This document shows positions 2,281 through 51,817 of a stretch of 64,000 bases of DNA, piece by piece. The first letter of the stretch is position 1; each line of letters opens with the position of its first letter. Under the pieces are notes generated by a model. That model searched no databases, had not been told where the DNA came from, and worked only from the letters and a program-made list of their open reading frames with translations. A program made the translations under genes and the position numbers. This stretch comes from an uncultured Alphaproteobacteria bacterium (GTDB lineage: Bacteria; Pseudomonadota; Alphaproteobacteria; RF32; CAG-239). The DNA lies in the NCBI GenBank assembly GCA_934254915.1, contig CAKQMH010000007.1, forward strand, positions 2,422 through 66,421, written 5' to 3'.

Positions 2281-2307
2281 TTTTTGGTTTTTATGAAAGG
2301 GAATCCC

Positions 2308-14217: not shown

Positions 14218-14235
14218 GTTAAGGGGAGAGCCACA

Positions 14236-15006: not shown

Positions 15007-15031
15007 TTATTAAAGTTTTAGGAGAAAGAAA

Positions 15032-17275: not shown

Positions 17276-17333
17276 TCAGTTCAATCTTGAACTAAAGACG
17301 AAAAGACGTCTTAAAAACTTTATCCTCCTAAAA

Positions 17334-17366
17334 CGCTCCGCCGGCAGAAAGTCGGCGGAGTTTTGT
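17334..17366 (+). terminator. Rho-independent terminator after flgE
   Basis: CTCCGCCG / CGGCGGAG stem with a GCAGAAAGT loop, followed by TTTT. Confidence 0.7.
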
Positions 17367-17475
17367 TTGCGGTGTTGATATCTTAAATTATTTATTCCCT
17401 AAATAATATTTTTAAGCTAAGACATAAATAAATGGGGAAGTTTTTACGGTTAGGGGCTGTAAAAACGTTTTGTAA

Positions 17476-19104: not shown

Positions 19105-19116
19105 GGGTAGCAAGCG

Positions 19117-20139: not shown

Positions 20140-20153
20140 TGGGGTGAGCAAGC

Positions 20154-20933
20154 GTGGCAGAGTTTCAGAAATATATGTTTGATAATTTTGTTGTTCCCAA
20201 TGACAATGAACCGGTCATTGATGAACCGCAGGTTATGACAACATCTGAAAATGAGGCTGCGCAAGATTTACCGTCATCGGAAAATACTGATACCATGCCG
20301 GAAGAAGTCGTTGCCGAAGCTACGGTTGAGCCGATGCCGCCGGCTGCACCTGAACCGGAAATAAAAGCCGAACCTACTGTCAGCTTTTCGCCTGAAGAAT
20401 TGGACGCAGAGGTTAAAAAAGCCGAAGAACGCGGTTATGAAAAAGGTTTTCAGGTTGCACAGAGCGAAAAAGAACAACGCCAATCATTATTATTAACCGA
20501 AATCAGCGGTAAGTTACAGGAATTATTGGATAATGCGGCGGCTGTGCAAACCAATTTGGAAGCAGAGCAGATGAGCTTAAGTGTCGAATTGGTGCGTAAA
20601 TTGTTACCGACATTGGAAAAAACGCAGGCTCAAGCCGAAGTCAAAAAGTTTTTGACCGATAACTTTGCTAATTTTCGCAAAGAGCCGGCGTTATCATTTA
20701 GTTTTAATCCCGAAGTGGTTGCCGCAATGCCTGAAATTATATCGAAACTGGCTTCACAAAATGATTTTGAGGGTAAAATTGCCATTCATAAAGATGCCAA
20801 TCTTGCTTTGACCGACTGTCGGGTTGAATGGCTTAATGGCGGAGTTGAACGCAATAATCATAAAATGCTTGAAAAAATGAGCGAATTATTTGATGATAAG
20901 ACCATGAATGGAAAAGAGAGGGAACATGGATAA
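20154..20933 (+). CDS. fliH: Flagellar assembly protein FliH/FlbE-like (GTG start)
   Basis: Acidic Pro-rich N-terminus, then AEERGYEKGFQVAQSE, which is FliH-like. It occupies the flbE slot of the Caulobacter fliF operon. Confidence 0.55.
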   Translation: MAEFQKYMFDNFVVPNDNEPVIDEPQVMTTSENEAAQDLPSSENTDTMPEEVVAEATVEPMPPAAPEPEIKAEPTVSFSPEELDAEVKKAEERGYEKGFQVAQSEKEQRQSLLLTEISGKLQELLDNAAAVQTNLEAEQMSLSVELVRKLLPTLEKTQAQAEVKKFLTDNFANFRKEPALSFSFNPEVVAAMPEIISKLASQNDFEGKIAIHKDANLALTDCRVEWLNGGVERNNHKMLEKMSELFDDKTMNGKEREHG

Positions 20934-21279
20934 AAATTTGGAATTAGACGAGTTAAACGAAACGGCATCCATGGATGATGAGCCGATTTTGCGCAAAAAT
21001 AATCCGACGGAAGATTTTGACATTCCAAGCTCCACCAGCGACTTGGAAGCTGTTTATAATATTCCGGTTAAGGTTTCGGCCATTTTGGGTAAAACGCAAA
21101 TGAAAGTCAGCCAGCTGATGAAGTTGAACAAAGGCGCGATTATTGAACTCGACCGCAAAGTCGGGGAGGCGATTGATATTTACGTTAACAATAATTTGGT
21201 TGCCCGCGGTGAAGTTGTCGTTGTTGATGACAAACTTGGTATTACCATGACTGAAATTGTCAAAACCGTAGCTAAATAG
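20926..21279 (+). CDS. fliN: Flagellar motor switch protein FliN (start at MDKNLE with a GAGAGGGA RBS; the longer ORF begins at 20908)
   Basis: C-terminal SpoA/FliN domain: VKVSAILGKTQMKVSQLMKLNKGAIIELDRKVGEAIDIYVNNNLVARGEVVVVDDKLGITMTEIV. Confidence 0.8.
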   Translation: MDKNLELDELNETASMDDEPILRKNNPTEDFDIPSSTSDLEAVYNIPVKVSAILGKTQMKVSQLMKLNKGAIIELDRKVGEAIDIYVNNNLVARGEVVVVDDKLGITMTEIVKTVAK

Positions 21280-21299
21280 TTGGATCGGCGGTAATAAAA

Positions 21300-22628
21300 A
21301 TGGAATTGTTGATTGTCGGAACTTTAGAAGGACAAATTGGTGCAGCCAGCAAAATTGCTATTGCGCAGGGCGGTCATGTGTCTTTAGCCGACAGTGTCGA
21401 GGCCGGACTTGAAATCTTGCGGTCGGGCAAAACCATTGAGTTGGTTATGATAGACGTTAAGCTTGATGTCTATAAGTTTATTTCCTCGTTGGAGCAGGAA
21501 CGCATTAATGTTCTGGTTGTAGCCTGCGGTGTGGCTAATGATCCGACTTTGGCGGTTAAAGCCATAAAAGCCGGCGCTAAGGAGTATATCCCTCTTCCTC
21601 CCGATGCCGAACTTATCGGAGCTGTTTTGGCGGCGGCCACGCGCGAAAATCACGCCCTGATTTACGGGGATAAAAAGACCGAAAATATTTTAAAAATGGC
21701 CAAGCAAATTGCCCCTTCGGAAGCCAGTGTGCTGTTGACCGGCTCTTCCGGAACCGGTAAAGAAATTTTTTCGCGCTTTATTCACGATAATTCCAAACGT
21801 GCCAATAAAAAGTTTGTGGCCGTAAACTGTGCGGCAATTCCCGAGACATTGTTGGAATCAGAGCTTTTCGGCTATGAAAAAGGCGCATTTACCGGCGCTG
21901 TCGCTCGTCGTATCGGCAAATTTGAGGAAGCCTCTGACGGAACATTGTTGCTGGATGAAATCTCCGAAATGGATATCGGTATTCAGGCCAAATTACTGCG
22001 TGCAATTCAGGAAAAAGAAATTGACCGTATCGGCGGTAAAGCTCCGATTAAAGTCAATACGCGGATTATTGCCACCTCCAACCGCAACTTGGATGAGGCT
22101 GTAAAAAACGGCACATTCCGCCAGGATTTGTATTATCGCTTGAACGTTATCGCAATTAATATTCCCGATTTGAAAGACCGTTCCGGCGACATTATCGTTT
22201 TGGCCAAGCATTTTATCAAAAAATATTCCGAACTCAATGACTTACCGATGAAAGATTTGTCTCCTGAGGCTGAGCAGATGCTGCTTAATTATCTGTGGCC
22301 GGGTAATGTTCGTGAGTTGGAAAATACGATTCATCGTGCGGTATTATTAAGTACCGGAGATGTTATTGGTCAGGATGCGATTATTTTGACCAGTCCCGAT
22401 GCTGTTATTAATTCTCAGGCCGCTGTGGCTGATAATAGCGGCAACAATAGTATGGTCGGGCAAACCGTTGCCGGAATGGAACGCAAGCTGATTATTGACA
22501 CCCTCAAACATACCATGGGTAACCGTACTACGGCAGCCAATATTTTAGGAATTTCAATCCGCACATTGCGTAACAAACTCAAACAATATCAGGAAGAGGG
22601 ATTTGATTTTCCCGCAGCTGAAGGATAA
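21300..22628 (+). CDS. flbD: Sigma-54-dependent flagellar transcriptional regulator (FlbD/FleR-like response regulator)
   Basis: Receiver-like N-terminus, an AAA+ sigma-54 activation domain with Walker A GSSGTGKE and GAFTGA, and a C-terminal HTH. Same position as flbD in the Caulobacter fliF operon. Confidence 0.8.
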   Translation: MELLIVGTLEGQIGAASKIAIAQGGHVSLADSVEAGLEILRSGKTIELVMIDVKLDVYKFISSLEQERINVLVVACGVANDPTLAVKAIKAGAKEYIPLPPDAELIGAVLAAATRENHALIYGDKKTENILKMAKQIAPSEASVLLTGSSGTGKEIFSRFIHDNSKRANKKFVAVNCAAIPETLLESELFGYEKGAFTGAVARRIGKFEEASDGTLLLDEISEMDIGIQAKLLRAIQEKEIDRIGGKAPIKVNTRIIATSNRNLDEAVKNGTFRQDLYYRLNVIAINIPDLKDRSGDIIVLAKHFIKKYSELNDLPMKDLSPEAEQMLLNYLWPGNVRELENTIHRAVLLSTGDVIGQDAIILTSPDAVINSQAAVADNSGNNSMVGQTVAGMERKLIIDTLKHTMGNRTTAANILGISIRTLRNKLKQYQEEGFDFPAAEG

Positions 22629-22639
22629 AATAATCGACA

Positions 22640-24754
22640 ATGGCAAAACAACCTCAAAATATGTTTGGTAGCAAAAGCTTTAAGGATATGCTCACGGGTG
22701 CAACCCGGCGCGGCGATATTTTCTTTGCCTTCGCCATAATTTTGATGCTGGTTATCCTGATTTTACCTTTACCGTCTTGGATTTTGGATGTTTTGTTGGC
22801 CTTTTCCATTACCATGTCGTGCATTGTGCTGATGATGTCTATTTTTATCGAAAAGCCGACCGAATTCAGTGCTTTTCCGCTGGTTTTGCTGATAACAACC
22901 TTATACCGCCTGTCCTTAAATCTGGCCTCTACGCGTCTGATTTTGGCCAAAGGTTATACCGGACCTGATGCCGCAGGTGAAGTTATTAAAGCTTTCGGCG
23001 GTTTTATCATGGGCAATAACTTTGTTATCGGTGTTATCGTTTTTGCGATTTTGGTATTGGTAAACTTTGTGGTTATTACCAAAGGTTCGGGACGTATTGC
23101 TGAAGTTGCCGCCCGTTTTGCTTTGGATGCGATGCCCGGTAAGCAAATGGCTATTGATGCTGACTTGTCTTCGGGCTTGATTAATGAAGATGAAGCGCGC
23201 AAACGCCGTGAGGATTTATCTAAAGAAAGCTCTTTTTACGGAGCTATGGATGGTGCTTCCAAGTTTGTCCGCGGAGATGCTATTGCCGGCTTGCTGATTG
23301 TGTTCATTAACATTGTCGCTGGTATTATTATCGGTATGGTGCAAAACCACTTAAGCTTCAGCGAGGCCAGCGAAACTTATATGCGTTTGACGGTCGGCGA
23401 TGGTTTGGTTTCGCAAGTTCCGGCACTGATTGTTTCGGTTGCCGCCGGTATTTTGGTGTCCAAGGCCGGTATGACCGATTCGACCGACAAAGTTTTGTTC
23501 GATCAGGTTGCCAACTATCCTAAAGCTTTGGGTATGAGTGCCTTTTTGGCCTTGGCTTTGGGAATGCTGCCCGGAACGCCGTTTGTACCATTCGTCATGT
23601 TGGCAACATTGACCGGTGCGACCGCGTATTATCTGGATAAACGCCAAAAAGAGCAGGCCGCTAAAGCCCAAGAAGTACTCGAGCAGGAGAAAAAACAAGG
23701 CAAACAGGCCAAAGCAGCTGATGAGCCGATTGCCAATGCTTTGCGGGTTGACCTGATTCGTCTGGAAATCGGTTATGGTCTGTTGCCGTTGATTAATGAA
23801 GAAACCAACCGTAAACTGACTGATCAGATTAAAGCCTTGCGCCGCGCATTGGCTTCCGAGCTTGGCTTTGTTATGCCCTCAATCCGTATTCAGGATAATA
23901 TGCAGCTGGAGGCTAACGAATATAATATTTACATCAAAGAAGTTCGGGCCGGCAAGGGGGAACTTCGCCCGACCAAATTATTGGTTATGGATCCGCGCGG
24001 CGAAGCGATTACTCTCCCCGGAGAAGCTACCTTTGAGCCGACTTTCGGGCTGAAAGCCATGTGGGTTGATCCTTCGTATCGTGAGGAAGCTATGTTCCGC
24101 GGCTATACGGTGGTCGATCCGGCTACGGTGGTTACAACCCATATTACCGAACTGGTCAAAGATAATATGCCCGAATTGTTGTCTTATGCCGAAACGCAAA
24201 AACTGCTTGATGAACTGGACAAAGAACATCAAAAACTTATCAAAGAGCTTATTCCGAGCAAAGTCAGCCTTGGTGCTTTGCAACGTATCTTGCAAAATCT
24301 GTTGCAGGAAAGAGTTTCAATTCGCGATTTGCCGACTATTTTGGAAGGCATTTCCGAGGCGGTTACCACTACGCGCAGCCTGATGATGATTACCGAGCAT
24401 GTTCGCGCTCGTTTGGCTCGCCAACTTTCCAATGCCTATGCCAATGAATTCGGAGTGATTTCTTTGGTTACCTTATCGCCGGAATGGGAACATGCTTTTG
24501 CCGAAGCTATTGTGGGCGAGGGTGATGAGCGTCAGTTGGCAATGGCTCCCAGCGCTTTACAAAGCTTTATTACCAAAGTCCGCAATACGATGGAAGAACT
24601 TGCCGCCAAAGGTGAAAGCGCCGTTCTTCTGACCAGTCCCGGCATTCGTCCGTTTGTTCGTTCTATCATTGAACGTTTCCGCCCGTTAACGGTGGTTATG
24701 TCGCAAAATGAAATTCATCCTAAGGCTAAAATCAAAACCGTCGGGCAGATTTGA
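22640..24754 (+). CDS. flhA: Flagellar biosynthesis protein FlhA (type III export gate)
   Basis: 704 aa, 8 TM N-terminal region with the FHIPEP signature (FALDAMPGKQMAIDADL) and a large cytoplasmic C-terminal domain. Confidence 0.95.
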   Translation: MAKQPQNMFGSKSFKDMLTGATRRGDIFFAFAIILMLVILILPLPSWILDVLLAFSITMSCIVLMMSIFIEKPTEFSAFPLVLLITTLYRLSLNLASTRLILAKGYTGPDAAGEVIKAFGGFIMGNNFVIGVIVFAILVLVNFVVITKGSGRIAEVAARFALDAMPGKQMAIDADLSSGLINEDEARKRREDLSKESSFYGAMDGASKFVRGDAIAGLLIVFINIVAGIIIGMVQNHLSFSEASETYMRLTVGDGLVSQVPALIVSVAAGILVSKAGMTDSTDKVLFDQVANYPKALGMSAFLALALGMLPGTPFVPFVMLATLTGATAYYLDKRQKEQAAKAQEVLEQEKKQGKQAKAADEPIANALRVDLIRLEIGYGLLPLINEETNRKLTDQIKALRRALASELGFVMPSIRIQDNMQLEANEYNIYIKEVRAGKGELRPTKLLVMDPRGEAITLPGEATFEPTFGLKAMWVDPSYREEAMFRGYTVVDPATVVTTHITELVKDNMPELLSYAETQKLLDELDKEHQKLIKELIPSKVSLGALQRILQNLLQERVSIRDLPTILEGISEAVTTTRSLMMITEHVRARLARQLSNAYANEFGVISLVTLSPEWEHAFAEAIVGEGDERQLAMAPSALQSFITKVRNTMEELAAKGESAVLLTSPGIRPFVRSIIERFRPLTVVMSQNEIHPKAKIKTVGQI

Positions 24755-24766
24755 GGATAAGCGCCG

Positions 24767-25720
24767 ATGAGAGTTAAAAATTTCATAGCGGCAAATATGA
24801 ACGAAGCCATGGCGCAAGTCCGAATGACGCTTGGTTCTGAGGCCGTAATCCTCTCTAATCAGATCCTGGACGGGCAGATTCATCTTACCGCCGCGGTTGA
24901 TGAACGTGATGACTTTGATTTCAATCCTGACGAGCGTCTTCGCGCCATAGATACCAAAATTTGGTTTGATGAACGCCATTTGCGCGAAAGTTTGGAATAT
25001 CACGGTGTTTTGGCATCCATCGCCGAAAAAATTTTGGCGCAGGCTCGAGATGTCGCTCGTTCACAACCGCAAGCCGATGAGCAAAAAGTTTTAAGTCAGG
25101 CTTTGGCTAAGGTATTTAAGTTTGATGGTCTGTTCGGTTCTGATTCGCAGGTAAAAGTTTTTATGGGGATTTCCGGCAGCGGTAAGTCCACCGCCATTGC
25201 CAAAATGGCCACTCAGGCTCGGTTGCAAAACATTAAAACCTTAATTGTCAGTACCGACAACATTCGCGCCGGCGCTAATAATCAGTTACAAGCATTTGCC
25301 AACATTTTGGAAGTCGATTTTGTCTTTCACAAACAGGCGGAAGAAGCGTTTAAATGTATTAATCAGGCTAAGCGCAATTATGGGCTTATCTTGGTTGATA
25401 CTGCCGGTATCAATCCTTATTATCAGGCAGAATTGGACAAGATTGCGCCGATTGTCGAAGCTTTAAAGGGAGATAAAATTTTAGTGCAGGATGCAGGACG
25501 CAACGTCTTTGAAGCGGTTGAAACGGCTGAATTGTTTAAGGATTTGGGCGCGGACTATTTATTACCGACCCGTTTGGATTTGACCCGACGCATCGGTGCT
25601 TTGATTTCTGCCGCCGGCTGTTGCAATCTTGCTTTTGCCGCCGCCGGTGTAAATTCGTCAATAGCTAAAGGATTAGCTCGTGTCGAAAGTTCATCATTAG
25701 CCAAACTTTTGTTAGCTTAA
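24767..25720 (+). CDS. flhF: Flagellar biosynthesis GTPase FlhF
   Basis: N-terminus MRVKNFIAANMNEAMAQVRMTLGSEAVIL is typical of FlhF. SRP-type GTPase P-loop GISGSGKST. Follows flhA. Confidence 0.8.
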   Translation: MRVKNFIAANMNEAMAQVRMTLGSEAVILSNQILDGQIHLTAAVDERDDFDFNPDERLRAIDTKIWFDERHLRESLEYHGVLASIAEKILAQARDVARSQPQADEQKVLSQALAKVFKFDGLFGSDSQVKVFMGISGSGKSTAIAKMATQARLQNIKTLIVSTDNIRAGANNQLQAFANILEVDFVFHKQAEEAFKCINQAKRNYGLILVDTAGINPYYQAELDKIAPIVEALKGDKILVQDAGRNVFEAVETAELFKDLGADYLLPTRLDLTRRIGALISAAGCCNLAFAAAGVNSSIAKGLARVESSSLAKLLLA

Positions 25721-25731
25721 AGGAAAGGAAA

Positions 25732-26538
25732 ATGGAAAATATACAAGAATTGACAATCGCTCCCGCCGGAACATCCGCCCGCAGTTTGCGTAAAGGGCGC
25801 AATATGTTGGCTATTGCCTCGGGCAAAGGCGGAGTTGGCAAAACCTGGTTTTCCATAACCTTGGCTCATGCTTTAAGCACGTTGCGGCAAAAAACTTTGC
25901 TGTTTGACGGCGATTTGGGTTTGGCCAATGTCGATATCCAGTTAGGTCTTATGGTGAAATACGATTTAGGCAGCGTCATTTCCGGCGCTATGAGCCTTAA
26001 TCAGGTGGTTCATCACTATGACAAAGGGCGGTTTGATGTTATTGCCGGACGTTCTGGCTCGGCCGGATTAGCCTCCATGCCGATAGGGCGGTTACAAATT
26101 TTGGGTGAGGATTTGAGCCTGCTGGCCGGTAATTACAATAAAGTCATATTGGATATGGGCGCCGGTGTTGAAAAGCCGGTACGCATACTTTCCGGTATGG
26201 CCGAAAAAATTATTGTTGTCTGCACGGACGAACCCACTTCTTTGACCGATGCCTACGCTTTTATCAAAATTATGACTATGCAATATCCGAAGAGTAATAT
26301 TAATATCGTTATTAATCAGGCTAATTCGGTGCGCGAGGGCCAACGTACGTATGATACTCTGCTCAAAGCCTGCAACAACTTCTTGAAAATAAATCCGCCT
26401 TTATTAGGTATAATCAGAAGAGATACGCGCGTTCGTGATTCGATTCGCAATCAAACTTCCATTATAAACCGCTATCCGACATCCGAGGCCGCCGAAGATG
26501 TTTTAGCCATTGCCAAGAGGTTAATCGCCAATGGATAA
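25732..26538 (+). CDS. flhG: Flagellar number regulator FlhG (MinD/ParA-family ATPase)
   Basis: Deviant Walker A: IASGKGGVGKTWFSITLA. About 268 aa and follows flhF. Confidence 0.8.
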   Translation: MENIQELTIAPAGTSARSLRKGRNMLAIASGKGGVGKTWFSITLAHALSTLRQKTLLFDGDLGLANVDIQLGLMVKYDLGSVISGAMSLNQVVHHYDKGRFDVIAGRSGSAGLASMPIGRLQILGEDLSLLAGNYNKVILDMGAGVEKPVRILSGMAEKIIVVCTDEPTSLTDAYAFIKIMTMQYPKSNINIVINQANSVREGQRTYDTLLKACNNFLKINPPLLGIIRRDTRVRDSIRNQTSIINRYPTSEAAEDVLAIAKRLIANG

Positions 26539-37010: not shown

Positions 37011-38213
37011 CTAGGTTTTCAGGTTAACTGCGGTTTGCAGCATCTCATTATTAACCGTAAAGGCATTGGCATTACTGGTATAAGCGCGCTGCGTAATAAT
37101 CATCGTACCAAACTCTTCGGCAATATCCACGGTTGACCGTTCCAAAGCTTGTGGCACAAGATAGTTGTCAGACACAAAATAGCTTTCGCCGACGTCATTG
37201 GTCGCCTCAAACAATGTTCCGTCTACCGCCAACAGGTTGTTGGGCGCGGTAAAACCGGTAATTGCCAGTTTGGCGATGTTATAAGTATTGCCGTTGGTGT
37301 AAGAGGCTTTCACAATTCCGCCCTCGTCAATGTAGCTCTTGATAAAGCTGCCGCTTGGCGCACCGTTTTGGTTGATAGTGGCAATACCTGTTCCGCCGTC
37401 ATATTGCGTCATGGTTGAAATATTTAAGGCCACATTGGTGGAAACCCCGTCATCCCATTGCACATCGACATTAAGGTTCTTGGGCGAAATCAGCCCGCCT
37501 TTGCTGTCAAAAACAACTTCGGTTTCGCTGCCGGTCGCTGTTCCACCCTCAACCGCAAACGACAAATTCCAGGTATTAACTTTGCCTTCGACTTTGGTAA
37601 AAATCATACTGAGCGAGTCACTCTCGTGGTTTTCGCTATATACCGGAATATTAAACAAGTTGCGATCAACATTAGCCGGAACATTGGCGGTAATACTGGC
37701 CTCCGTGGTTGGCTGCGCCGGAATTTTTTCGGGGTATTTGAGGATAATATTTTCCGCCGCCGCGCTGAACCCGCCGCCGTCTAAGGCCGTAAAGCCTTGA
37801 ACTTTCAACCCATTTTGCGAAATCAGATACGTAACCCCGTTTTCCGTGCGGTTTTCAAAATTACCGGCGCGGGAATAATAGGTGTTGTTGAAGTCGTCCT
37901 TGAGGGTAAAAAAAGCATTAGAATTGCCGGAAATCGCCACATCAAAACTATTGCCGGTCACATTCAAAATACCCTGATCGTCAATATTGGTGCGGTCATA
38001 ATAGCCCACACCCTGCACATCGACGCGGGAGGCGGAAATTCCTGCCGCATTATTCTTGACCGCCGGCGCTGAACCAAGCAAGGTGTAAAACATTGTCTGA
38101 TTGGTACGATAACCCACGGTGTTGACATTGGCGATGTTCGTACTTACCTGTCCGATAGCGTGCGCATAAGCTTCCATACCGGTGGTGGAGGGGGTAAACA
38201 TACTTAAAGCCAT
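37011..38213 (-). CDS. flgE: Flagellar hook protein FlgE paralog (canonical length, 400 aa)
   Basis: N-terminal IGQVSTNIANVNTVGYR and the DVAISGNSNAFFTLKDD...YYSRAGNF block match the FlgE N-domain. C-terminus ERSTVDIAEEFGTMIITQRAYTSNANAFTVNNEMLQTAVNLK matches the rod/hook C-terminus. Confidence 0.8.
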   Translation of the reverse strand: MALSMFTPSTTGMEAYAHAIGQVSTNIANVNTVGYRTNQTMFYTLLGSAPAVKNNAAGISASRVDVQGVGYYDRTNIDDQGILNVTGNSFDVAISGNSNAFFTLKDDFNNTYYSRAGNFENRTENGVTYLISQNGLKVQGFTALDGGGFSAAAENIILKYPEKIPAQPTTEASITANVPANVDRNLFNIPVYSENHESDSLSMIFTKVEGKVNTWNLSFAVEGGTATGSETEVVFDSKGGLISPKNLNVDVQWDDGVSTNVALNISTMTQYDGGTGIATINQNGAPSGSFIKSYIDEGGIVKASYTNGNTYNIAKLAITGFTAPNNLLAVDGTLFEATNDVGESYFVSDNYLVPQALERSTVDIAEEFGTMIITQRAYTSNANAFTVNNEMLQTAVNLKT

Positions 38214-38271: not shown

Positions 38272-38305
38272 AAAAAACAGCCCTCCTACATTCTGTAAGA
38301 GGGCT
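38272..38305 (-). terminator. Rho-independent terminator after the 594-aa Cys-rich gene
   Basis: Stem AGCCCTC (38279-38285) / GAGGGCT (38299-38305). On the minus strand it is followed by T7, which abuts the sigma-54 -24 element. Confidence 0.6.
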
Positions 38306-38330: not shown

Positions 38331-40115
38331 TTAGTTTGGTTTGCATCCTTTCCAATAAGCATCATTGCAAGGACATATCTCGTATGTTTTACTGTTATCA
38401 CAACCCATTCTATTTATGTTTGACTCATATCCTAATTTAATGCAGAATTCTTTTGTATCCCCAAAGTAAGCGCAATCGCATTTTGCTAAGAATGTTTTGG
38501 CTTGGTTTCTGCTATCATCTGAGTCAGACCATTTATTTGTGGAAATTTGCTGGTAATCATGTTCGCAATTACCTGGTTCTTCTTTCTCACTCACTAAAGT
38601 ATCGTTACAAGCCGGATAAGAAGGATCTGAATTATTTTGATATGGTGTAAATATACTGTTTTCACATCCACCCCAGCGATACCAGCTATTATAGTTGTAG
38701 TCGGTTTCATCTGGTCTGCCGCATTTCTTGCAGTAGATAGCACCTTCTTGTGAAGCAGATACTCCTACTTTAGGAAAAACACTCTGAGGAGTACGGCAGG
38801 TATCTTGCGGGTTAAAGGTGTAACCGCTGCTGCAGGTTGGAGCTTCACAACTTGAAATATACGTTTTGCGATGTTCAATGCGGGTTGCTTTGGCGCATAC
38901 TCTATTGAGACACTCTTCATACGTATCATCATCCTCATTCTCGCTACACCTGTATTGATTGTATTCTCCATCAAGGGCATTATCATCAACGCTAGCTCTG
39001 CACTCTGTGACGCTTAGTTCATAGTCATCATAGACGCAGCTGGTGCATTCCGGATTGTTACTGTCGTGTTCGACTTTCATATATTTTTTACCATTACACC
39101 AAGACGATTTGTCACAAGTGCTGAAGCCCTCGCGGCAGACTTTATCCGCGTGATAATAAGTTTTTTCATTGCTGCCGCAGCCTTCGGTGCAGGATACAAC
39201 ATTGGTCGCGCCCGCCGGCACGCTTTCCAAATTGTAGTAGGTGCGGTCGCAGGCCGGCTTATTGCATACACATTTGTTGCATGGTTCGCCGCCGGAATAT
39301 CCGTCGGTTTCCAACGTCGGCGTGGTTGAGGTTTGGTCGCACGAGGTTACACCTGTGCTGTAACCCGTGGGGCATGATTTCTTAGCACAACCGCAGTTAC
39401 CGCTGTTGAGCCAACCTAGAGCCGTGTTGCATACACATTCGCCGCCTTGTTCGGTGAGGCCGGCAGCGGTGTCACATACACATTGCTTGGTGTAGGAGTT
39501 ATAAACATGGCAGCTACGGCAATTTATCGGCTTGGTACAGCTGGTGCAGCTTCCTTTACTTTGGTTGCCGTGGGTGCAAGAATAGCCGCTGTTGCATGAG
39601 CATTGGTAGTGGGTTCCGTTCTTATCGCTACAAGATTTACAGCTCAAATTTTCATCTGTCGGGCGGAAATTCAACGGAAACTTAATAGCCGAACAAGTGC
39701 AGTTGTATCTAGTTCCGTTTCTGTCGGTACATGCTTGGCAATTATAACCTTCATCAGTCGGCTGAGAATTTAGTGGATATTCTGAGGTCGAGCAAGCGCA
39801 GTATTCATACTTCCCATCACAGCTTTGTCCTGACGGAACTTTTCCCGCCGGGCAGGATGACACATAGTTCGTCGGGCAGGTACAGGACTTATAGCAGTAC
39901 AAGCCTTGTGTAACCATTATTTTAGTCCCTTTCTTTGGTGCGGGGCAATCGCTAAGCATGTTGTGATCGCTGCAGGTTGACTGCTTTGTATCAGTACCAA
40001 AGGAGCCAAGATCACCGCTGTAATTCGGCAGCCACGTCACACCGGCCCACGCTGCTCCGGATATCACTATCGCACCGACCAGTGCGACTATCCCTGTTTT
40101 TGAAAATTTAATCAT
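38331..40115 (-). CDS. Cysteine-rich secreted protein (594 aa; about 12% Cys), paralog of the upstream gene
   Basis: Strong SD GAGGTG with 4-nt spacing. Sec signal MIKFSKTGIVALVGAIVISGAAWA, followed by the VTWLPNYSG motif. Dense CxC/CxxC content and no Cys-free stretch longer than about 25 aa. Confidence 0.7.
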   Translation of the reverse strand: MIKFSKTGIVALVGAIVISGAAWAGVTWLPNYSGDLGSFGTDTKQSTCSDHNMLSDCPAPKKGTKIMVTQGLYCYKSCTCPTNYVSSCPAGKVPSGQSCDGKYEYCACSTSEYPLNSQPTDEGYNCQACTDRNGTRYNCTCSAIKFPLNFRPTDENLSCKSCSDKNGTHYQCSCNSGYSCTHGNQSKGSCTSCTKPINCRSCHVYNSYTKQCVCDTAAGLTEQGGECVCNTALGWLNSGNCGCAKKSCPTGYSTGVTSCDQTSTTPTLETDGYSGGEPCNKCVCNKPACDRTYYNLESVPAGATNVVSCTEGCGSNEKTYYHADKVCREGFSTCDKSSWCNGKKYMKVEHDSNNPECTSCVYDDYELSVTECRASVDDNALDGEYNQYRCSENEDDDTYEECLNRVCAKATRIEHRKTYISSCEAPTCSSGYTFNPQDTCRTPQSVFPKVGVSASQEGAIYCKKCGRPDETDYNYNSWYRWGGCENSIFTPYQNNSDPSYPACNDTLVSEKEEPGNCEHDYQQISTNKWSDSDDSRNQAKTFLAKCDCAYFGDTKEFCIKLGYESNINRMGCDNSKTYEICPCNDAYWKGCKPN

Positions 40116-40141
40116 TCTGCACCTCTTTTAAAGTTAGTGTT

Positions 40142-42573
40142 TTAGTTGTTGTCTAATTTCCGTCCCAAATACTCTATTGGCATATTATAAACATGATGTG
40201 GTAAAGTCCTGTAACGCGGTGAGCCAGTTGAAATTTCGCAATAACCTGCTCCTTCATCAATAGCTCCGTATGAGTCATCATAGTCGGTAATATTTTGCGC
40301 ACCGAAAACGCAACTAGCCACACGATTGTTGGTTAGATCTACGCCTTGAAGAGAACCGCCCACATTGAGAATAAATTTGGTAATCTCACCGTTTATGTAA
40401 GGAACCGGTTCATAAAAGTCATTCTCATATGCCTGTTTGTCACAGTCGTCCATCCCTTCATTGCAGGTGCCTGCTTCTTCACAATAGCTGACCGAAAAGT
40501 CACTATTTATAAGTACGTTAACATTTTTTTGAATATCAAGGCTTACATATCGGTTACCAATATAAACATTTCCAGCTATAATAAGATTATTATTGGTATA
40601 GGTATTGCCGGTTTTAGGCGAAATTATAGCATTTACTGAGCCGATTTCTACAACATCATTGTTAACGTCAGTCATAGTTGAAGCTGAGTGTTTTAGTTTT
40701 ACTGAACCCTTGATATTCATAGTATCGATCGCTCTCAGCGGTACCGTGCCATAATAATTATGGTCGCCTAATTCTAGAAAAGAACCTTCTTCTGTTTCAA
40801 TGTTGTCAATGTGTCCACTCGGGTTATTAATAACCAAGTTCGAGTTTTTAGACAGATATATATTGGCAGCGTCAAAAGCCACTTCTTCATTCGGAATAAC
40901 GACCTTTGTCTGAGTAGTAGTCACTCTTAAGTTTTTTATGTCGACAGATGTAACGCCAAGAAAATCACCGGTGTGTGTAGCATTAATTGATAATTCATCA
41001 ATGCTAAATCCTCTAATATTCGTAGTGATTCTAGCGCTTGAACCATCAATAAATAATTGACTCCAATTTAAAGTATTAACACCTGATGCTTTACAAACAC
41101 CATTTGATTCTTCAACAAATTTGTCCTCGGTATATATTTCTATCGGATAGGTCAAATCAATAGACTTAGAGATGTTATCTGTTGCCATAATAATCATTGT
41201 TCTACCTTCATCAATTGCATCTCTCATCTCTTGACCATCGGACACATACACTGCAGCTGGATATTTAGCTTCTAAGAACGCCTGACAGCTGGGGTAGACG
41301 CATTTACCGTTGACCAAAGTCGTACCGGGCCGGCAGTAGATACAAGTGTCATTAACCAATGTTGTGTTGGGATAACAACTTTTTATTTTGTAATAAGTCG
41401 TGTTGTCGCCACAGCCTTTGACACAAGTTTCATACGTTGCGTTCATCGGCTTTTTGGTTAGTGTATAGCCGGTGCAACTTTGGGGCGAGCATACACAGCG
41501 TCCGCATTTTTGTTCGCCGGAGTATCCGCTCTCGAGGTAAGAGTAATCATCGGCACATTCGGTCACGCCCGCGGTATAACCGGCCGGACAAGCCGCCGCT
41601 TTACAGCTGGTGATATTGCCGGCTGAGTCAGTGGTTTTGGTGTAGCCGGTCTTGCAACCGTCAATCTTATAATTAGGCGTGCCGGTTGAACTCATTCGGC
41701 AGGTGCTGCAACTGCTTGCGCCGGTCGGGCAGGCCGCGTTGCAGTATTTGTTTATGTCACAACTGCATAAATAACAGGACATACCATTGACGGTTACAGA
41801 GTTACAGGTTTGTCCCAAGGCTGTTCTTTCGGATATATCTTCGGGATTAACATAGCCGCTGGGGCAAGATGTCGCCTGACATTTGCCATCCACCAACTCA
41901 TAGTTGGCATTGCAGCCTGTTACTTTATATTTATTATCGCATTTTTCACAGGTGCTGTTGGCCGGACACGAAGACAGGCTGTAATCAGACGGGCAGGTAC
42001 AGGTGGTAAAATATCCTTTTATGGTCGTCGCCGTTACCTTGTCGCCAAAACCGGGAGCATAAATCGTGTCTGATAAACGGGAGCTGCTTTGAGTCGCAGC
42101 CGCTTTGGTTCCGGTATTGCGTTGAGCCGCAGCTGTTTTGGTTCCGGTATTGATTTTAGACGTAGCCGGTTTGAGGCCGTTGGTGGTGGCAACTGAGTCT
42201 AAAGTCGAACTATCGGAAAAAACGCCGTTGCTGGCGAGGGCGTCACAGGATTCCCCTCCCAACACTTTGGGGGATTCGCAGTTGCTGGAGCTGTATTGGT
42301 AATAACTTCGATCGCAGGAGCAGGATTTGTAGCAAGTCTTATTGCCGACCGGAACGGAGGTTGTTGGTTTCTTATGCTCTGGGCAAGATGAAATCAAGCC
42401 GGCTTCTTCGCAGGTCGTGGTGACTTCACTTAAGCCGCCATCGCTAACGCGGTTTTTATCCATATTGCTGCCCAAATATTCCGGCAGCCAATAAATTTTG
42501 GCAAAAGAACTTGAAACCATAATCACTGAACTAATCAGGACCAAAGTCCACAACCACAACCGCTTAGACATAA
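40142..42573 (-). CDS. Cysteine-rich secreted protein with a Cys-poor beta-helix-like C-terminal half (about 809 aa from the MSKRLW start; the longer ORF runs to 42607)
   Basis: Sec signal MSKRLWLWTLVLISSVIMVSSSFA, then KIYWLPEYLG. N-terminal about 440 aa are Cys-rich, with modules shared with the 594-aa protein (for example CPAGYTAGVTEC...SGYSGEQKCGRCVC vs CPTGYSTGVTSC...DGYSGGEPCNKCVC). The C-terminal about 370 aa are Asn/Ile/Val-rich repeats. Confidence 0.7.
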
Positions 42574-42710
42574 TACACCCCGCTGATTTTAAGGCGATTG
42601 CTGCCAATCACCCAAATTTCACCTATATATAGTTTAGCTTATTTTAGCCACACTAGCAATTAAAAATACGTTAAATCAGCTTAATAAAATAAAAATTTAA
42701 TATATTTGTA

Positions 42711-42746
42711 ACAAAAAAGAGGCGTTTTTTTGCGCCTCTTTTGTTC
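42711..42746. terminator. Bidirectional terminator between the bactofilin gene and the Cys-rich gene
   Basis: AAGAGGCG / CGCCTCTT stem with a T-rich loop, flanked by an A6 run and a T-run. Confidence 0.65.
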
Positions 42747-42769: not shown

Positions 42770-43249
42770 TTATGCCATTTTGTTGCGGCTGGCGTCAACT
42801 AACATCAAATCCGGTTTGCCCTGTTCAGCGGGAATGGGCGCGCCGGCGCGGATGCAGTGTCCGTCAATATAAGCTCCCGGCTCAATCGCAATCGTATTAT
42901 GGGTTGCGTCGCCAATCATGTGAGCTGATTTGGCAATAAACAGGTTGTCAACCGCGGCTTTGCCGTTCAGCGTACCGAATAATTGCAGGCTGTTGGCGTT
43001 AACCGAGCCGGTAACCGAGCCCTTAACCCCGATAATCAGCTCATCACAGCTGATGTCGCCTTCAACATGCCCGTCAACATGAACAATCGCCTCGCTGATA
43101 ATATCGCCGTTGAGTTTAGTGTTTTCGCTGATGATGCTAGGAACGGGAACTCCATTCGAACCGCGGCTCAAACGACGTGCAAGTTTCAGATAAATCAAAC
43201 GTTTAAGTTTTTTCATTTTAACCTCTTTCATAACCATTCTCCGGCTCAA
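42770..43249 (-). CDS. Bactofilin (polymer-forming cytoskeletal protein, CcmA/BacA-like)
   Basis: DUF583-type beta-helical repeats: GDIISEAIVHVDGHVEGDISCDELIIGVKGSVTGSVNANSLQLFGTLNG. Basic N-terminal tail. Confidence 0.8.
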   Translation of the reverse strand: MSRRMVMKEVKMKKLKRLIYLKLARRLSRGSNGVPVPSIISENTKLNGDIISEAIVHVDGHVEGDISCDELIIGVKGSVTGSVNANSLQLFGTLNGKAAVDNLFIAKSAHMIGDATHNTIAIEPGAYIDGHCIRAGAPIPAEQGKPDLMLVDASRNKMA

Positions 43250-43263
43250 ACTGCTGTGCTAAC

Positions 43264-44568
43264 CTAAATTTTTGCCTGCATAAACGGCAAAGGATCAACC
43301 GGAACACCCTGATACAACACCTCATAATGCAGGTGCGGGCCGGTAGAACGTCCGGTACTGCCAACTTCACCCAGTGTATCATATTTTTTTAAATAATCAC
43401 CTTTTTTTACATAAATCTTGTGCATATGCGCATATTTGGTCTGAAAACCGTTGCCGTGGTCGACTACCACATAGTTGCCGTAGCCGCGGTTGCTGTGTTC
43501 GGTTTTAATGACTTTCCCTTTGGCTTGAACCTGAATTTTGTTGCCGGTGCGGCTGGCCAGGTCGACCCCCTTGTGGCCGGCTTTTTTCTTGTTAAACGGA
43601 TCGCTGCGGTAGCCATATTTCGATGTTACCCAATAGCTCCACACCGGTTTACCCATCGGCACATATTGCACCACTTCGCGATAATATTCCAAATCATCGG
43701 CGGCCTTAAATATTTTGCTGATTTTGTCGGTCATGGCTTTGTCTTGCAATTCCGAAACCGAAGCCGGAATAAATGGTCCTCCGCGGGAGTTTTTCTTTTT
43801 GCTGTTGGCCAACGGGTTAAAATAAAGCTCTTTTTTCTTTAATGAGCCGTTGATCTGCGAAAACGCACTTTTGATTTTATTGATTTCTTTGGCGGCAATG
43901 CTCTCAACTCTCGAAAACACTTCCATTTCCGCGGCTTTAATCTCTTTAATTGAATCTTCCAACCGGCTGATTTGCTGCCGCAGTTCATCACGTTCGGCGG
44001 CGGCGATGTCGCGTTGCAGCAAAGCCTCGTTAACCGTCATTTTTTCATTGATTTTTTTGTCGTCGGCCCAATTTTTTTCAGCGGTTATTTGTTTGATCTT
44101 GTCTTCAACCACCATGGCCTGATGTTTATACTTATCCAACTCCTTGGTTGAGGCTTGTCCTTTTTTATTAATGGAAGACAAAACCGAATCAATATTTTTG
44201 TGAATGGCCGCAAAGTCGCTCATCAAATCGACATAAGCGTCGCGCGTTTCCACCAGCTCGATTTCCTTGTGGTTTATAATCCGGCTGGACTTGTTGTACA
44301 TATGGTATGAATAAAAGCTCCAAACCGCAATGCAGCACAACAGGCTGAGCAAAATAACCTGCATTTGCGAAGAAATTTTTAAGACTTTGGCGCGTCCGGC
44401 ACTGCGGAAAATAATCTCCTTTTCCGAGAAAAACGGTTTCTTCTCGGTATAGTGCGGGGAATAAGTCTTTTTGCGGAGTAGGCGAGCCTTACGTTTCATA
44501 AAAAAAGCCTGAGTTGTTAATACTAAACGTGCGCATAATCGGCACACATTTATAGTTACATATAACAA
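43264..44568 (-). CDS. M23-family (LytM-type) peptidoglycan endopeptidase with an N-terminal coiled-coil
   Basis: C-terminal M23 domain GHKGVDLASRTGNKIQVQAKGKV...GNYVVVDHGNGFQTKYAHMHK...GSTGRSTGPHLHYEV, including the HxxxD and HxH zinc ligands. One TM helix and a long coiled-coil before it. Confidence 0.8.
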   Translation of the reverse strand: MLYVTINVCRLCARLVLTTQAFFMKRKARLLRKKTYSPHYTEKKPFFSEKEIIFRSAGRAKVLKISSQMQVILLSLLCCIAVWSFYSYHMYNKSSRIINHKEIELVETRDAYVDLMSDFAAIHKNIDSVLSSINKKGQASTKELDKYKHQAMVVEDKIKQITAEKNWADDKKINEKMTVNEALLQRDIAAAERDELRQQISRLEDSIKEIKAAEMEVFSRVESIAAKEINKIKSAFSQINGSLKKKELYFNPLANSKKKNSRGGPFIPASVSELQDKAMTDKISKIFKAADDLEYYREVVQYVPMGKPVWSYWVTSKYGYRSDPFNKKKAGHKGVDLASRTGNKIQVQAKGKVIKTEHSNRGYGNYVVVDHGNGFQTKYAHMHKIYVKKGDYLKKYDTLGEVGSTGRSTGPHLHYEVLYQGVPVDPLPFMQAKI

Positions 44569-45741: not shown

Positions 45742-45817
<76 letters not shown>

Positions 45818-49503: not shown

Positions 49504-49799
49504 TGCCAGACTGATAATTAGTCTAGGTAAGCTGGAAAAAACTCAAATTGATAATATATTATAATTGTTCACGATGATGGTACATCGAAATTTTATTTCT
49601 TTTGCCATTATGAGTGTTCACCAGATTCTCCTGCACCTATTGTTGTGGCAAAAGATATAATATTTTTTGTTCATCAAAGTTTCAGTGAGGTCGGAAAGGC
49701 GAAAAGTATATGGCTTTTCGCCTTTTTTATGGTTTGGGTTGTATTTTTATCCAATTATTAAATATTGTTTGCTAAAATTCATTAAAATTGACAAAAAAG

Positions 49800-49827
49800 T
49801 TGAATTTTCGAAAATTTATGCTAGAAT
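49800..49827 (+). promoter_or_regulatory. Sigma-70 promoter (-35 TTGAAT 49800-49805, 16-nt spacer, -10 TAGAAT 49822-49827 with upstream TGc)
   Basis: Hexamers read directly. Followed by a GGAGG RBS at 49852-49856 and an ATG at 49862. Confidence 0.5.
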
Positions 49828-49861
49828 AAATCTCATAGTAAAGAATATACCGGAGGCAGCC

Positions 49862-51817
49862 ATGGCAGAATCAAAATTGTTTACGTTCACCTTTAATATG
49901 GACGAGGAACATAAGTCGCTAATTTTGCAAAAGTATAATCAAGAAACTTTCTCCGCAGAGGATGAAAAGCTTTTGGCCTCAATCCGCAATTCTTCTGCAC
50001 CCAATAAAGAACAAGCTGAAAAAGATTTACTTTTCGCGCATGCTTTTGTCCGTAGTGTGGCTGAAGACGGCAAATATTCGCAACAAGATGGTGAAAATCC
50101 GGCCAATCAAAATAATGTTGAGCTGAAACAAGATCGTCATGGAAACTTGCGCTTGCTTTGCATGATGCGTAATCTGGAAGGTACGGGCTTGAATTTTACG
50201 ATTGAGGACGGCAAAAGTATCGTCTTGGCTCAAAATGGCGAAATGAGCCGTGAAAAACTCATGGCTTTGTTCAACTTTTTAGACACTCACTATATCAGCG
50301 ATGTCAAGCTTCCGGATAATCTCCGTGATTTGACTTTAGCGCCGACCGCCGATGACAACAGCCCGAATGTCGGGACTTATTGGGACAAATTGCAGCAAGA
50401 ATCTGAAAGTTTTGCTGAACAAAACGAAATGAGCGGACAGGTCAAACTCGGTGCTGGTAAGTCCGAGAATATAGAGCCGGATATATCACCATCCGAGAAT
50501 ATTGATCCTGATATGTCACCATTGGCTAATAGTGGAGGAGCTTTTTATAAAGATGATAACAAGCCGCTTAACCTCAGTGCCAAAGTAATGCGCGATAAGG
50601 TTGAGGCTCGTCTGGGGATTATGGGCTACAACAACGGTGTTATCAAAACCAAATCCCTATGGTTTAATAATGGTTATATTGTCAGTGCCTATAAAGACGA
50701 TGATGCCTATAAGAACGATGGTAAAAACGAAAAAGGCAAAATTAAACACACCAAAGATTTTTCGATTAAAGTCCAAATCAAAAAAGGTCGTCCTACCGTC
50801 AGCTGGTATATCCCGCAAGGCGGTAAAATTGAAACCAAACATGCTCAAGCGATGTTGGATGCCCTAAAAGCTACCGGCGCTAAATATTTTACTCTTCCTT
50901 CAGCGGTTAAGGTCAGTGGCGGAGCGCAAAATTGTTTTTGGGAGGGCTGCGGCAAAACCTTAATGGTTCCGCGGTGCAAATGTGCCGATTGTCCGGAAGG
51001 AGTTGAGCTTGGTCCGGATAATGTTCAAACTATGTTCAATGTTATTGAAAAAGATAACAATAAAGATTCGGATTCCGTTTTGGAATTTAAGGCACGGTTG
51101 TTAGATGAATTAGAATATCAGGAAGCTTACAAACGTTCTAAAAACAAAAATTATAAAACCAATTCGGTTTTGGCTACTCAAATGGAACAAATGCGTGGAA
51201 CATTGGTCTATAAAAAACTGAATGACGGCTACCTTAATAATTTAAGCAGTAACATTATGAAGATGGCCAATAAAGGGCTGAGCAGCAAAACCAAAAATGA
51301 AGGTTGGGATTTCATTGAAGTTCAGGCCGCCAACCGAGCAATGGTATCAATAATCGAAAAGTTAAATGAAAAAGACGATAACGGCAATTTCAAATACCGC
51401 TATATTGGTTCGCCGGAGCAAGATAAAGCTTTGGATAAGATTTTTGCCAAGATGATGGAAGAAGAAAAGAAAAATATTGCAGAGGAATTTCAGTTGGGAC
51501 TGTCTGAAGGCAAACGCGAAAAAGACATAAAGAATGAAATTCGCGGCACAACCAAAGGTCTGATTGAAACGACACATGATAGTATTGAAACTGATTACGG
51601 CATCAAATTGAATATGTCATCTAAAGGTGTTAATGTTTCAAGTAATGTTGATATTAAGAAATACTATCCTGATACTAAAGTCAAAAAAGATGGCAAGGGA
51701 CATCTTGAATACGACTTCAGCGGTTGCAGCTATAAGAGAACAACCTCGCGCAGCCATACCGGTGAAGTTCAACAGCTTGGCGGCAACGTCAATCGGATTA
51801 CAAGTCGCGAACGTTGA
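49862..51817 (+). CDS. Hypothetical hydrophilic protein, 651 aa (start at MAESKLF; the upstream part of the long ORF 49667-49861 is promoter sequence)
   Basis: GGAGG 6 nt upstream of the ATG. No signal peptide or TM. Lys/Asp/Asn/Glu-rich. Contains an internal 10-aa tandem repeat and a Cys cluster CFWEGCGKTLMVPRCKCADCPEG. Confidence 0.6.
   Translation: MAESKLFTFTFNMDEEHKSLILQKYNQETFSAEDEKLLASIRNSSAPNKEQAEKDLLFAHAFVRSVAEDGKYSQQDGENPANQNNVELKQDRHGNLRLLCMMRNLEGTGLNFTIEDGKSIVLAQNGEMSREKLMALFNFLDTHYISDVKLPDNLRDLTLAPTADDNSPNVGTYWDKLQQESESFAEQNEMSGQVKLGAGKSENIEPDISPSENIDPDMSPLANSGGAFYKDDNKPLNLSAKVMRDKVEARLGIMGYNNGVIKTKSLWFNNGYIVSAYKDDDAYKNDGKNEKGKIKHTKDFSIKVQIKKGRPTVSWYIPQGGKIETKHAQAMLDALKATGAKYFTLPSAVKVSGGAQNCFWEGCGKTLMVPRCKCADCPEGVELGPDNVQTMFNVIEKDNNKDSDSVLEFKARLLDELEYQEAYKRSKNKNYKTNSVLATQMEQMRGTLVYKKLNDGYLNNLSSNIMKMANKGLSSKTKNEGWDFIEVQAANRAMVSIIEKLNEKDDNGNFKYRYIGSPEQDKALDKIFAKMMEEEKKNIAEEFQLGLSEGKREKDIKNEIRGTTKGLIETTHDSIETDYGIKLNMSSKGVNVSSNVDIKKYYPDTKVKKDGKGHLEYDFSGCSYKRTTSRSHTGEVQQLGGNVNRITSRER

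Follow-up and report, generated by a model that had tools for sequence, protein, structure and literature searches.

Two adjacent minus-strand genes, here designated B and A, lie in a 64,000-nucleotide (nt) stretch of DNA from an uncultured alphaproteobacterium (GenBank assembly GCA_934254915.1, contig CAKQMH010000007.1); the whole of this stretch is referred to as the window. The pair is best read as an operon for modular, Sec-exported, and disulfide-stabilised proteins, each comprising an N-terminal handle, a stalk, and an exposed head that varies from strain to strain. This reading is given a probability of roughly 0.55. A and B are the only element at the locus that differs between otherwise near-identical strains, and the contrast is exceptionally clean. 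Moreover, a cysteine content of 10% is rare for an exported bacterial protein.

Conserved stalks and hypervariable heads

The two genes and the parts of their products are as follows (aa, amino acids; pLDDT, predicted local distance difference test score).

40142..42571, minus strand: gene B, 809 aa from its ATG, stop codon (40142-40144) included; intact orthologs in independent assemblies
42500..42571, minus strand: predicted B signal peptide (aa 1-24), MSKRLWLWTLVLISSVIMVSSSFA; its n-region is basic, its core hydrophobic, and S-F-A occupies -3 to -1
42242..42499, minus strand: B N-terminal signature module (aa 25-110), KIYWLPEY at 42476-42499 and then the first cysteine-rich domain
42011..42241, minus strand: B cysteine-free linker (aa 111-187), rich in T, A, G, and K and predicted to be disordered (pLDDT 27-35)
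41252..42010, minus strand: B stalk (aa 188-440), 12.4% cysteine and presumably disulfide-rich; CPAGYTAGV...GYSG...CGRC and C..GCG..TYYK..C modules, in common with A
40145..41251, minus strand: B hypervariable C-terminal head (aa 441-809), cysteine-poor and β-rich
38331..40115, minus strand: gene A, 594 aa, stop codon (38331-38333) included; 22 distinct intact alleles recovered
40044..40115, minus strand: predicted A signal peptide (aa 1-24), MIKFSKTGIVALVGAIVISGAAWA, with A-W-A at -3 to -1
39786..40043, minus strand: A N-terminal signature module (aa 25-110), GVTWLPNY at 40020-40043 and then the first cysteine-rich domain
39141..39785, minus strand: A stalk (aa 111-325), 12.6% cysteine and presumably disulfide-rich; CPTGYSTGV...GYSG...CNKC and GCGSNEKTYY modules
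38334..39140, minus strand: A hypervariable C-terminal head (aa 326-594), 8.9% cysteine; the cysteine framework is kept while the intervening sequence varies

The window was compared with three other assemblies that contain the same locus. Products of the flanking genes (an M23 peptidase, a bactofilin, an FlgE-like protein, PGK, and GAPDH) are 99.3-100% identical in amino-acid sequence, with nonsynonymous divergence (dN) of at most 0.004, synonymous divergence (dS) of 0.01-0.07, and dN/dS of 0-0.07. Between conspecific strains, identity over the whole protein is 80-94% for A and 81-90% for B. The N-terminal modules and stalks are 95-99% identical in most strain comparisons (N-terminal modules: 91-99% for A and 96-99% for B; stalks: 95-99.5% for A and 95-98% for B). 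The heads gave these values:

A residues 326-594: amino-acid identity 65-87%; dN 0.07-0.29; dS 0.13-0.71; dN/dS 0.41-0.74
B residues 441-809: amino-acid identity 64-83%; dN 0.11-0.24; dS 0.18-0.83; dN/dS 0.29-0.58

A 200-nt identity scan reveals two sharp islands, at about 41400-40200 and 39000-38330, in which nucleotide identity falls to 63-81% against a background of 98-100%; within them, the B head is 63-80% and the A head 65-81% identical. Because the island patterns differ between strain pairs, the A and B alleles are mosaic. Since synonymous divergence in the heads exceeds that in the flanks more than tenfold, the head alleles are old, introduced or maintained by recombination, and not the outcome of recent mutations. 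These 3' islands could serve as strain-typing markers for the lineage in metagenomes.

Comparison of 22 distinct A alleles and of 8 B alleles places the most variable stretches at residues 331-594 of A, and at residues 421-540 and 721-809 of B. The cysteines stay in place even within the hypervariable regions: 54 of the 60 in A and 43 of the 44 in B are invariant, and where positions do vary, it is mostly because a whole four-cysteine module has been lost.

A third paralog extends this picture. It was recovered on two contigs (L028, 5971-7650, 559 aa; L032, 6001-7629, 542 aa), in both cases between hemW/an EamA-like gene and smpB/tilS/cpoB/pal, and it very probably resides in the same genome as the A and B locus, since L028 belongs to the same assembly as one such locus and has equal coverage. 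Between the two strains, identity is 86-90% over the first ~350 aa and 92-100% in the flanks, while the last ~170 aa show essentially no relationship. This is outright C-terminal replacement, an extreme version of the pattern in A and B.

Pilins, flagellins, O-antigen loci, and phage receptors are examples of exposed molecules under frequency-dependent selection, and such molecules show the same combination of localised hypervariability and old alleles. Since the pattern is typical of exposed molecules, A and B are most economically placed, by analogy, at the cell surface or in the medium. It marks the molecules by which these bacteria most likely meet their host, phages, or competitors.

Export signals and the cysteine framework

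By eye, each protein opens with a basic n-region that leads into a hydrophobic core, with small residues at positions -3 and -1; these features point to Sec-type export and cleavage. The predicted mature N-termini, AWA/GVTWLPNY for A and SFA/KIYWLPEY for B (cleavage at the slash), have WLPxY in common, so that the Sec signal peptide and the common post-cleavage motif claimed in the original prediction, an earlier note made from the sequence alone, are both upheld on inspection.

The 60 cysteines of A amount to 10.1% of its residues, with 12.6% in residues 111-325 and 8.9% in residues 326-594. The 44 cysteines of B (5.4%) are distributed less evenly: 12.4% in residues 191-440; 7.8% in residues 26-115; none in residues 116-190; and 1.6% across the last 369 residues, the C-terminal 45% of the protein. 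Other open reading frames (ORFs) of the window (n=48) average 1.0% cysteine, with a maximum of 3.1%. The earlier figure of about 12% cysteine for the mature regions is therefore about right for A; in B it describes only the stalk, the C-terminal 45% being cysteine-poor. The description of both proteins as "giant" overstates the case for products of 594 and 809 aa, although the ORFs themselves stand as predicted.

Sequence comparison identifies A and B as true but old paralogs. They align by BLASTP with E=6e-12 (30% identity over 288 aa) and, in a separate N-terminal match, with E=2e-9; both module pairs that the original prediction had quoted as common to the two proteins do align.

The AlphaFold2 (AF2) models of A and B reach good confidence in the N-terminal domains and the cysteine-rich modules alone, both of which are built from β-hairpins. 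For the N-terminal module, pLDDT is 80-83 in A (about 80 over residues 45-115) and about 66 in B, which has seven cysteines in aa 26-115. For the stalks, pLDDT is 75-87 over aa 220-360 of A and 70-87 in B, where the chain is modelled as β-hairpin modules. The B linker is encoded in part by a 33-nt tandem repeat (42085-42173, minus strand; 2.7 copies, 80% matches), whose 11-aa unit is rich in T, G, K, and A; the repeat may allow linker length to vary, or may be a glycosylation site.

A bias toward even numbers of cysteines in exported proteins is known from comparative analyses as a signature of disulfide pairing. The counts in A and B are both even, as are those of 71 of the 103 non-redundant family members that bear the N-terminal motif described below (binomial p=7.7e-5, truncated sequences included). 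Structural disulfides are favoured over metal ligation because of this parity, the retention of cysteine positions in hypervariable sequence, and the hairpin-ladder AF2 models. A and B are therefore predicted to be disulfide-bonded, and the proposed export to an oxidising compartment with formation of many disulfides is plausible in view of cysteine parity and invariance.

A family defined by an N-terminal module

Word-indexed searches returned only close orthologs of A (at least 69% identity) and 14 relatives of B. With a 20-sequence profile (alignment A1, which includes A and B), the same kind of search found 52 relatives. An exhaustive hidden Markov model (HMM) search of 1.84 billion cluster representatives (50% identity clusters) matched 425 of them at E≤1e-3, of which 203 reached E≤1e-10 and 53 reached E≤1e-30. 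Most of the HMM matches cover only the N-terminal ~100 aa after the signal peptide, here termed the YWLPDY module. Among proteins returned by annotated searches, none was named by its source and almost none has a Pfam domain.

The consensus of 116 members reads A (98%)-[GKR]-[VIT]-[YT]-W-L (97%)-P (97%)-D (97%)-Y (87%), and 84% of these members have an Arg residue about 10 residues past the motif. The first cysteine-rich domain follows, with the pattern C..YG...C...GLxCYxxCxC...Y.Y...C.......G..C; invariant or near-invariant columns in alignment A1 (B numbering) are C54, C80, Y81, C84, C86, Y90, C98, G106, and C109. Both this domain and the motif after the signal peptide are present in A and B, which are thus members of the family. 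A is a divergent one: N replaces D in its motif, and the downstream Arg is absent. The motif in the form A-[GKR]-[VIT]-[YT]-[WFY]-L-P-[DEN]-[YW] occurs in 151 of 212 fetched family proteins.

The position of the motif is bimodal. It stands directly after the signal peptide in some members, including A and B, and 15-35 residues further in for most others; the immediately post-cleavage location first noted for the pair thus applies to them and to some relatives, but not to the majority. Therefore, the motif is a conserved structural or functional element, and not merely the context of a cleavage site.

Behind the N-terminal module, three cysteine modules recur in the family: CPxGY[ST]xG[VL]TxC...GYSGxxxCGxC; C..Y.L...P.NA....C..GCG...YYK..C; and CxCP..Y.LS.CP....C..C..KYK...C..GY. 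No structure has been solved for these compact and presumably disulfide-rich repeats. Other relatives join the same N-terminal module to different terminal domains: DUF285/BspA-type leucine-rich repeats (LRR) with PKD at the C-terminus (P0047 and P0089); Lcl_C at the C-terminal end (P0135); a pectate-lyase-like adhesive domain, just below threshold (P0062); and five Ephrin_rec_like (PF07699) repeats, E=5.6e-30 (P0094). Most of these terminal domains are typical of extracellular adhesins. About 20 fetched members have long cysteine-poor tails like that of B; a jackhmmer search with the B head against 20 such tails found them all unrelated to it by sequence.

In a scan of reference genomes (one per species), the family was found almost exclusively in uncultured Alphaproteobacteria of gut and rumen: 14 of 15 matching contigs come from metagenome-assembled genomes (MAGs) of uncultured Alphaproteobacteria or of an uncultured proteobacterium, including human-gut (UMGS) and rumen (RUG) assemblies. 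These bacteria are common in humans and ruminants, and their biology is almost unknown. The family stands out in them through several paralogs per genome (four to six or more in some of the genomes that bear it) and through cysteine at about ten times the level of the other proteins of the window. No relatives were found on viral contigs. Genomic neighbourhoods differ completely between genomes, and include SecDF, ATP synthase, murC, EPSP synthase, and tol-pal.

Several individual loci deserve mention. One uncultured alphaproteobacterial MAG (CALYAX01; L016, 7983-15186) carries a same-strand tandem array of three or four family genes; the overlap of the last two ORFs may reflect a frameshift or a pseudogene. 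In another MAG (CATGXW01; L010-L015), family genes lie at the very start of six short contigs, which suggests that repetitive or hypervariable family genes break metagenome assemblies, and that copy number is underestimated. The exception to the taxonomic distribution is a 908-aa ORF with 128 cysteines (L020, 5785-8508) on a 53%-GC contig binned as Limosilactobacillus gorillae. Its one match to the family is in the CPxGY/GYSG module, and it has no WLPDY motif; probably the contig is mis-binned, or the ORF encodes an unrelated cysteine-repeat protein.

Relation to known proteins

The original prediction recognised no standard surface-protein family in A or B, and database searches agree: scans of Pfam, NCBIfam, and PHROGs gave no meaningful match, and PDB sequences queried with the family profile and with A gave none at E≤1. 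A literature search on the motif and on comparable cysteine-rich proteins of gut Alphaproteobacteria found nothing relevant. Thus, Pfam, NCBIfam, PDB, and the searchable literature contain no description of the family, its motif, or its modules, whereas the functional kind is already familiar: a modular, variable, exported, host-facing protein.

Similarity to eukaryotic extracellular domains had also been proposed (EGF, furin, or the variant-specific surface proteins, VSPs, of Giardia). Ephrin_rec_like (PF07699), furin-like, TNFR, and EGF repeats are, as A and B are predicted to be, built from small β-hairpin modules cross-braced by disulfides with CPxGY-type spacing, and repeats of these types are the top, though non-significant, matches in a fold comparison. 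The EGF-like, furin-like, Ephrin_rec_like, and TNFR Pfam models match neither protein even at E≤1. The likeness is one of style, without demonstrable homology.

Giardia VSPs and the immobilisation antigens of ciliates resemble A and B more broadly: they are exported; contain ~10-12% cysteine, with frequent CxxC and CxC; occur as multiple paralogs in a gut-dwelling organism; and pair a conserved end that anchors them with an exposed part that varies greatly. Unlike A and B, which have their conserved end at the N-terminus and no Pfam VSP match, the Giardia VSP has a C-terminal transmembrane segment with a CRGKA tail. Moreover, A and B belong to a diderm bacterium, and their variation is allelic, between strains, with no evidence found for switching within a clone.

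Among bacterial proteins, the BspA-type LRR proteins and Legionella Lcl offer a parallel for the family in their stalk and distal binding head, and some relatives do carry DUF285/BspA LRR with PKD, or Lcl_C, at their C-terminus. A and B themselves differ in having neither domain, and no autotransporter barrel, lipobox, or signal for type I or type IX secretion. Their stalks would be disulfide-based, whereas those of modular bacterial adhesins consist of Ig-like or coiled-coil repeats.

A model and its alternatives

The preferred model is of a handle, a stalk, and a head. A and B would be exported through Sec and acquire their disulfides in the periplasm. The N-terminal module would act as a common handle, either directing translocation across the outer membrane or attaching the protein to the envelope. 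A rigid, disulfide-laddered stalk, preceded in B by the disordered or flexible linker, would project the variable head into the gut lumen. There the head would bind an external partner (such as a glycan or mucus of the host, a second microbe, or a particle), and phage or IgA might also recognise it. Old divergent head alleles would be maintained by negative frequency-dependent selection and shuffled by recombination. This model would explain why the N-terminal module is the sole family-wide part and near-invariant within the species, why cysteines are fixed while loops vary, and why different payload domains can be attached.

Several observations weigh against this model. Expression, cleavage, disulfides, and location of A and B all have an indirect basis, and the binding function of the heads is argued from analogy. 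No outer-membrane translocation or anchoring signal (lipobox, β-barrel, or C-terminal sorting domain) was found in either protein: the first cysteine comes only after the first 47 residues of A and 53 of B; Pfam and NCBIfam detect no autotransporter or outer-membrane-protein domain; and the C-termini (...AYWKGCKPN in A, ...YLGRKLDNN in B) neither end in an aromatic residue nor contain a hydrophobic segment. In six genomic contexts, no secretion or partner gene recurs beside the family genes, and the window contains no Dsb gene. That the motif lies off the predicted mature N-terminus in most members weakens the case for a required free N-terminal peptide. The AF2 heads are poorly modelled (pLDDT 25-68), and no homologs of the C-terminal halves of A and B were detected beyond their own orthologs. 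Finally, the heads have dN/dS values below 1 and thus give no demonstration of positive selection; their divergence could owe something to relaxed constraint together with recombination.

With respect to export, the YWLPDY module is the obvious candidate for the element that crosses or attaches to the outer membrane. A bolder and decidedly tentative proposal is that it constitutes an unrecognised N-terminal sorting or anchoring signal, the mark of a lineage-specific route of surface display in diderm gut Alphaproteobacteria, whose cargo is a disulfide-rich, hypervariable coat: a counterpart of the VSP type, shaped by host immunity or by phage. The motif is sharply defined and experimentally tractable, and could reveal a new route of export or anchoring in diderm bacteria.

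A functional sub-variant of the handle, stalk, and head model, in which the proteins are components of an S-layer or coat that self-assembles through the N-terminal module and varies its C-termini for antigenic variation, is unlikely. The layout is like that of the Campylobacter fetus Sap proteins, whose conserved N-terminus is thought to attach to the envelope, whose C-terminus is variable, and whose several paralogs are partly in tandem; moreover, neither A nor B has a recognisable domain for binding a specific ligand. However, Sap proteins are cysteine-poor, lack a signal peptide (type I secretion), and vary by promoter inversion, none of which applies to A and B. Known S-layer proteins are typically cysteine-free, and Gram-negative ones are often secreted by type I systems without a signal peptide, which is at odds with 10.1% and 5.4% cysteine behind Sec-type N-termini. 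The locus contains no invertible repeats, homopolymers, or other phase-variation elements, including an invertible promoter (its sole repeat is the 33-nt coding repeat in the B linker), its promoter region is 99-100% conserved, and relatives carry adhesin-type heads.

Polymorphic toxins or bacteriocin-like effectors, in which a conserved N-terminus delivers swappable C-terminal toxins for competition between strains, would account for much of the variation: conserved N-terminus and variable or replaced C-terminus; high C-terminal dS; mosaic alleles; and several paralogs per genome. CdiA, Rhs, and MafB likewise have a conserved N-terminal region and exchange C-terminal cassettes between strains by recombination. 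Such systems come with an immunity gene, a toxin domain, and a dedicated secretion partner, and none of these was found for A and B. No immunity-like ORF lies 3' of B, where A follows, or of A, where a terminator and a fully conserved flgE-like gene follow; the third paralog is followed by the opposite-strand smpB, with only featureless ORFs of less than 70 aa between. Scans against Pfam, NCBIfam, and PHROGs detect no toxin domain in the heads, no PT-type pre-toxin motif is present, no T5, T6, or T7 secretion genes are associated, and the dense conserved cysteine framework of the A head is atypical of translocated toxin domains. For lack of an immunity gene, this explanation was rejected as the leading model, and it is improbable.

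Slightly more improbable again is a periplasmic or envelope-internal role in which the cysteines serve metal binding, redox buffering, or metal storage. High cysteine content with CxC and CxxC spacings would suit such a role, as would a probably anaerobic gut host and the lack of a Dsb gene noted above. Yet the bias toward even cysteine counts runs through the family, AF2 sets the cysteines in β-hairpin ladder modules resembling TNFR, furin, and EGF repeats, and the proteins have neither the His/Cys cluster motifs typical of metallothioneins nor CC pairs. Nor would a housekeeping metal role predict hypervariability between strains that is so sharply localised.

That the ORFs are spurious or decaying, as assembly chimeras or pseudogenes, might be suspected from the frequent location of family genes at contig ends in fragmented MAGs, and is effectively refuted by full-length intact ORFs from more than 20 independent assemblies, by conserved cysteines, start and stop positions, Shine-Dalgarno sequences, and terminators, and by dN/dS below 1.

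Operon layout

The signals that delimit the gene pair are these:

42711..42746, minus strand: intrinsic terminator hairpin closing the upstream M23-peptidase/bactofilin operon, AAGAGGCG-A7-CGCCUCUU then U6, after the bactofilin stop codon
42572..42710, minus strand: AT-rich intergenic stretch 5' of B, the presumed promoter region, 99-100% identical between strains
38272..38305, minus strand: intrinsic terminator hairpin 3' of A, a 13-bp stem then U7

Stable hairpins with U-runs bracket both ends, which bears out the original claim that B and A make up a discrete transcription unit. A simple consensus terminator scan had missed both hairpins; they were verified by folding against shuffled controls, with a free energy of -16.5 kcal/mol (z -5.41; 0 of 200 shuffles equally stable) for 42711-42746 and -22.2 kcal/mol (z -4.85) for 38272-38305. 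The two genes are likely co-transcribed, because only 26 nt separate the B stop from the A start. By eye, only weak sigma-70-like hexamers are present upstream of B, with no sigma-54 or sigma-28 promoter motifs.

Both genes had been credited with a strong Shine-Dalgarno sequence. That of A is indeed strong (AAGAGGTG, 6 nt ahead of the ATG), whereas that of B (GGGGTG) is only moderate. Some gene callers choose an alternative TTG start for B at 42607, which would yield 821 aa; the end point first assigned to the pair, 42573, lies 2 nt beyond the B ATG.

Neighbouring genes and the host

The operon that ends at the terminator upstream of B (42770-44568, minus strand) encodes an M23 (LytM-type) peptidase with a DUF5930 domain and, directly after it, the bactofilin; neither differs between strains (100% identity). 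This layout is reminiscent of the csd/ccmA cell-shape locus of Helicobacter, and by this analogy the host organism may be curved or helical. Just downstream of A is a stand-alone 400-aa FlgE-like gene (37011-38213, minus strand; Flg_bbr_C, weak FlgE_D2) with its own Shine-Dalgarno sequence. This short gene is distant from the main flagellar cluster, which holds a 747-aa FlgE at 15032-17275.

That cluster (12274-26538, plus strand) encodes FliK, FlgD, FlgE, FliF, FliG, an unassigned 259-aa ORF, a sigma-54 activator, FlhA, FlhF, and a MinD/FlhG-like ATPase. The window also encodes LpxC, LpxA, LpxI, LpxB, BamD, MlaA, and MlaC. Because of these lipid A, Bam, Mla, and full flagellar genes, the host is, by its gene content, a motile diderm with lipopolysaccharide, and no obvious endosymbiont. 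An endosymbiotic host, to which the original prediction alludes, is thereby not supported. Proteins identical to A occur in assemblies from human stool, including Hadza samples. The host is probably an anaerobic gut organism.

Elsewhere in the window, a 575-aa ORF without a Pfam match is directly followed by a 359-aa Sel1-repeat protein (7220-10027, plus strand). Sel1-like repeat proteins are often linked to host interaction, and these ORFs may be another host-interaction pair. A 716-aa ORF without a Pfam match (49667-51817, plus strand) adjoins mlaA/mlaC, upstream of lpxA/lpxI/lpxB, and is unannotated in other assemblies as well. RNA genes include a class A RNase P RNA (1886-2281, plus strand; 287 bits) and the sole tRNA of the window, tRNA-Phe(GAA), at 45742-45817 on the minus strand.

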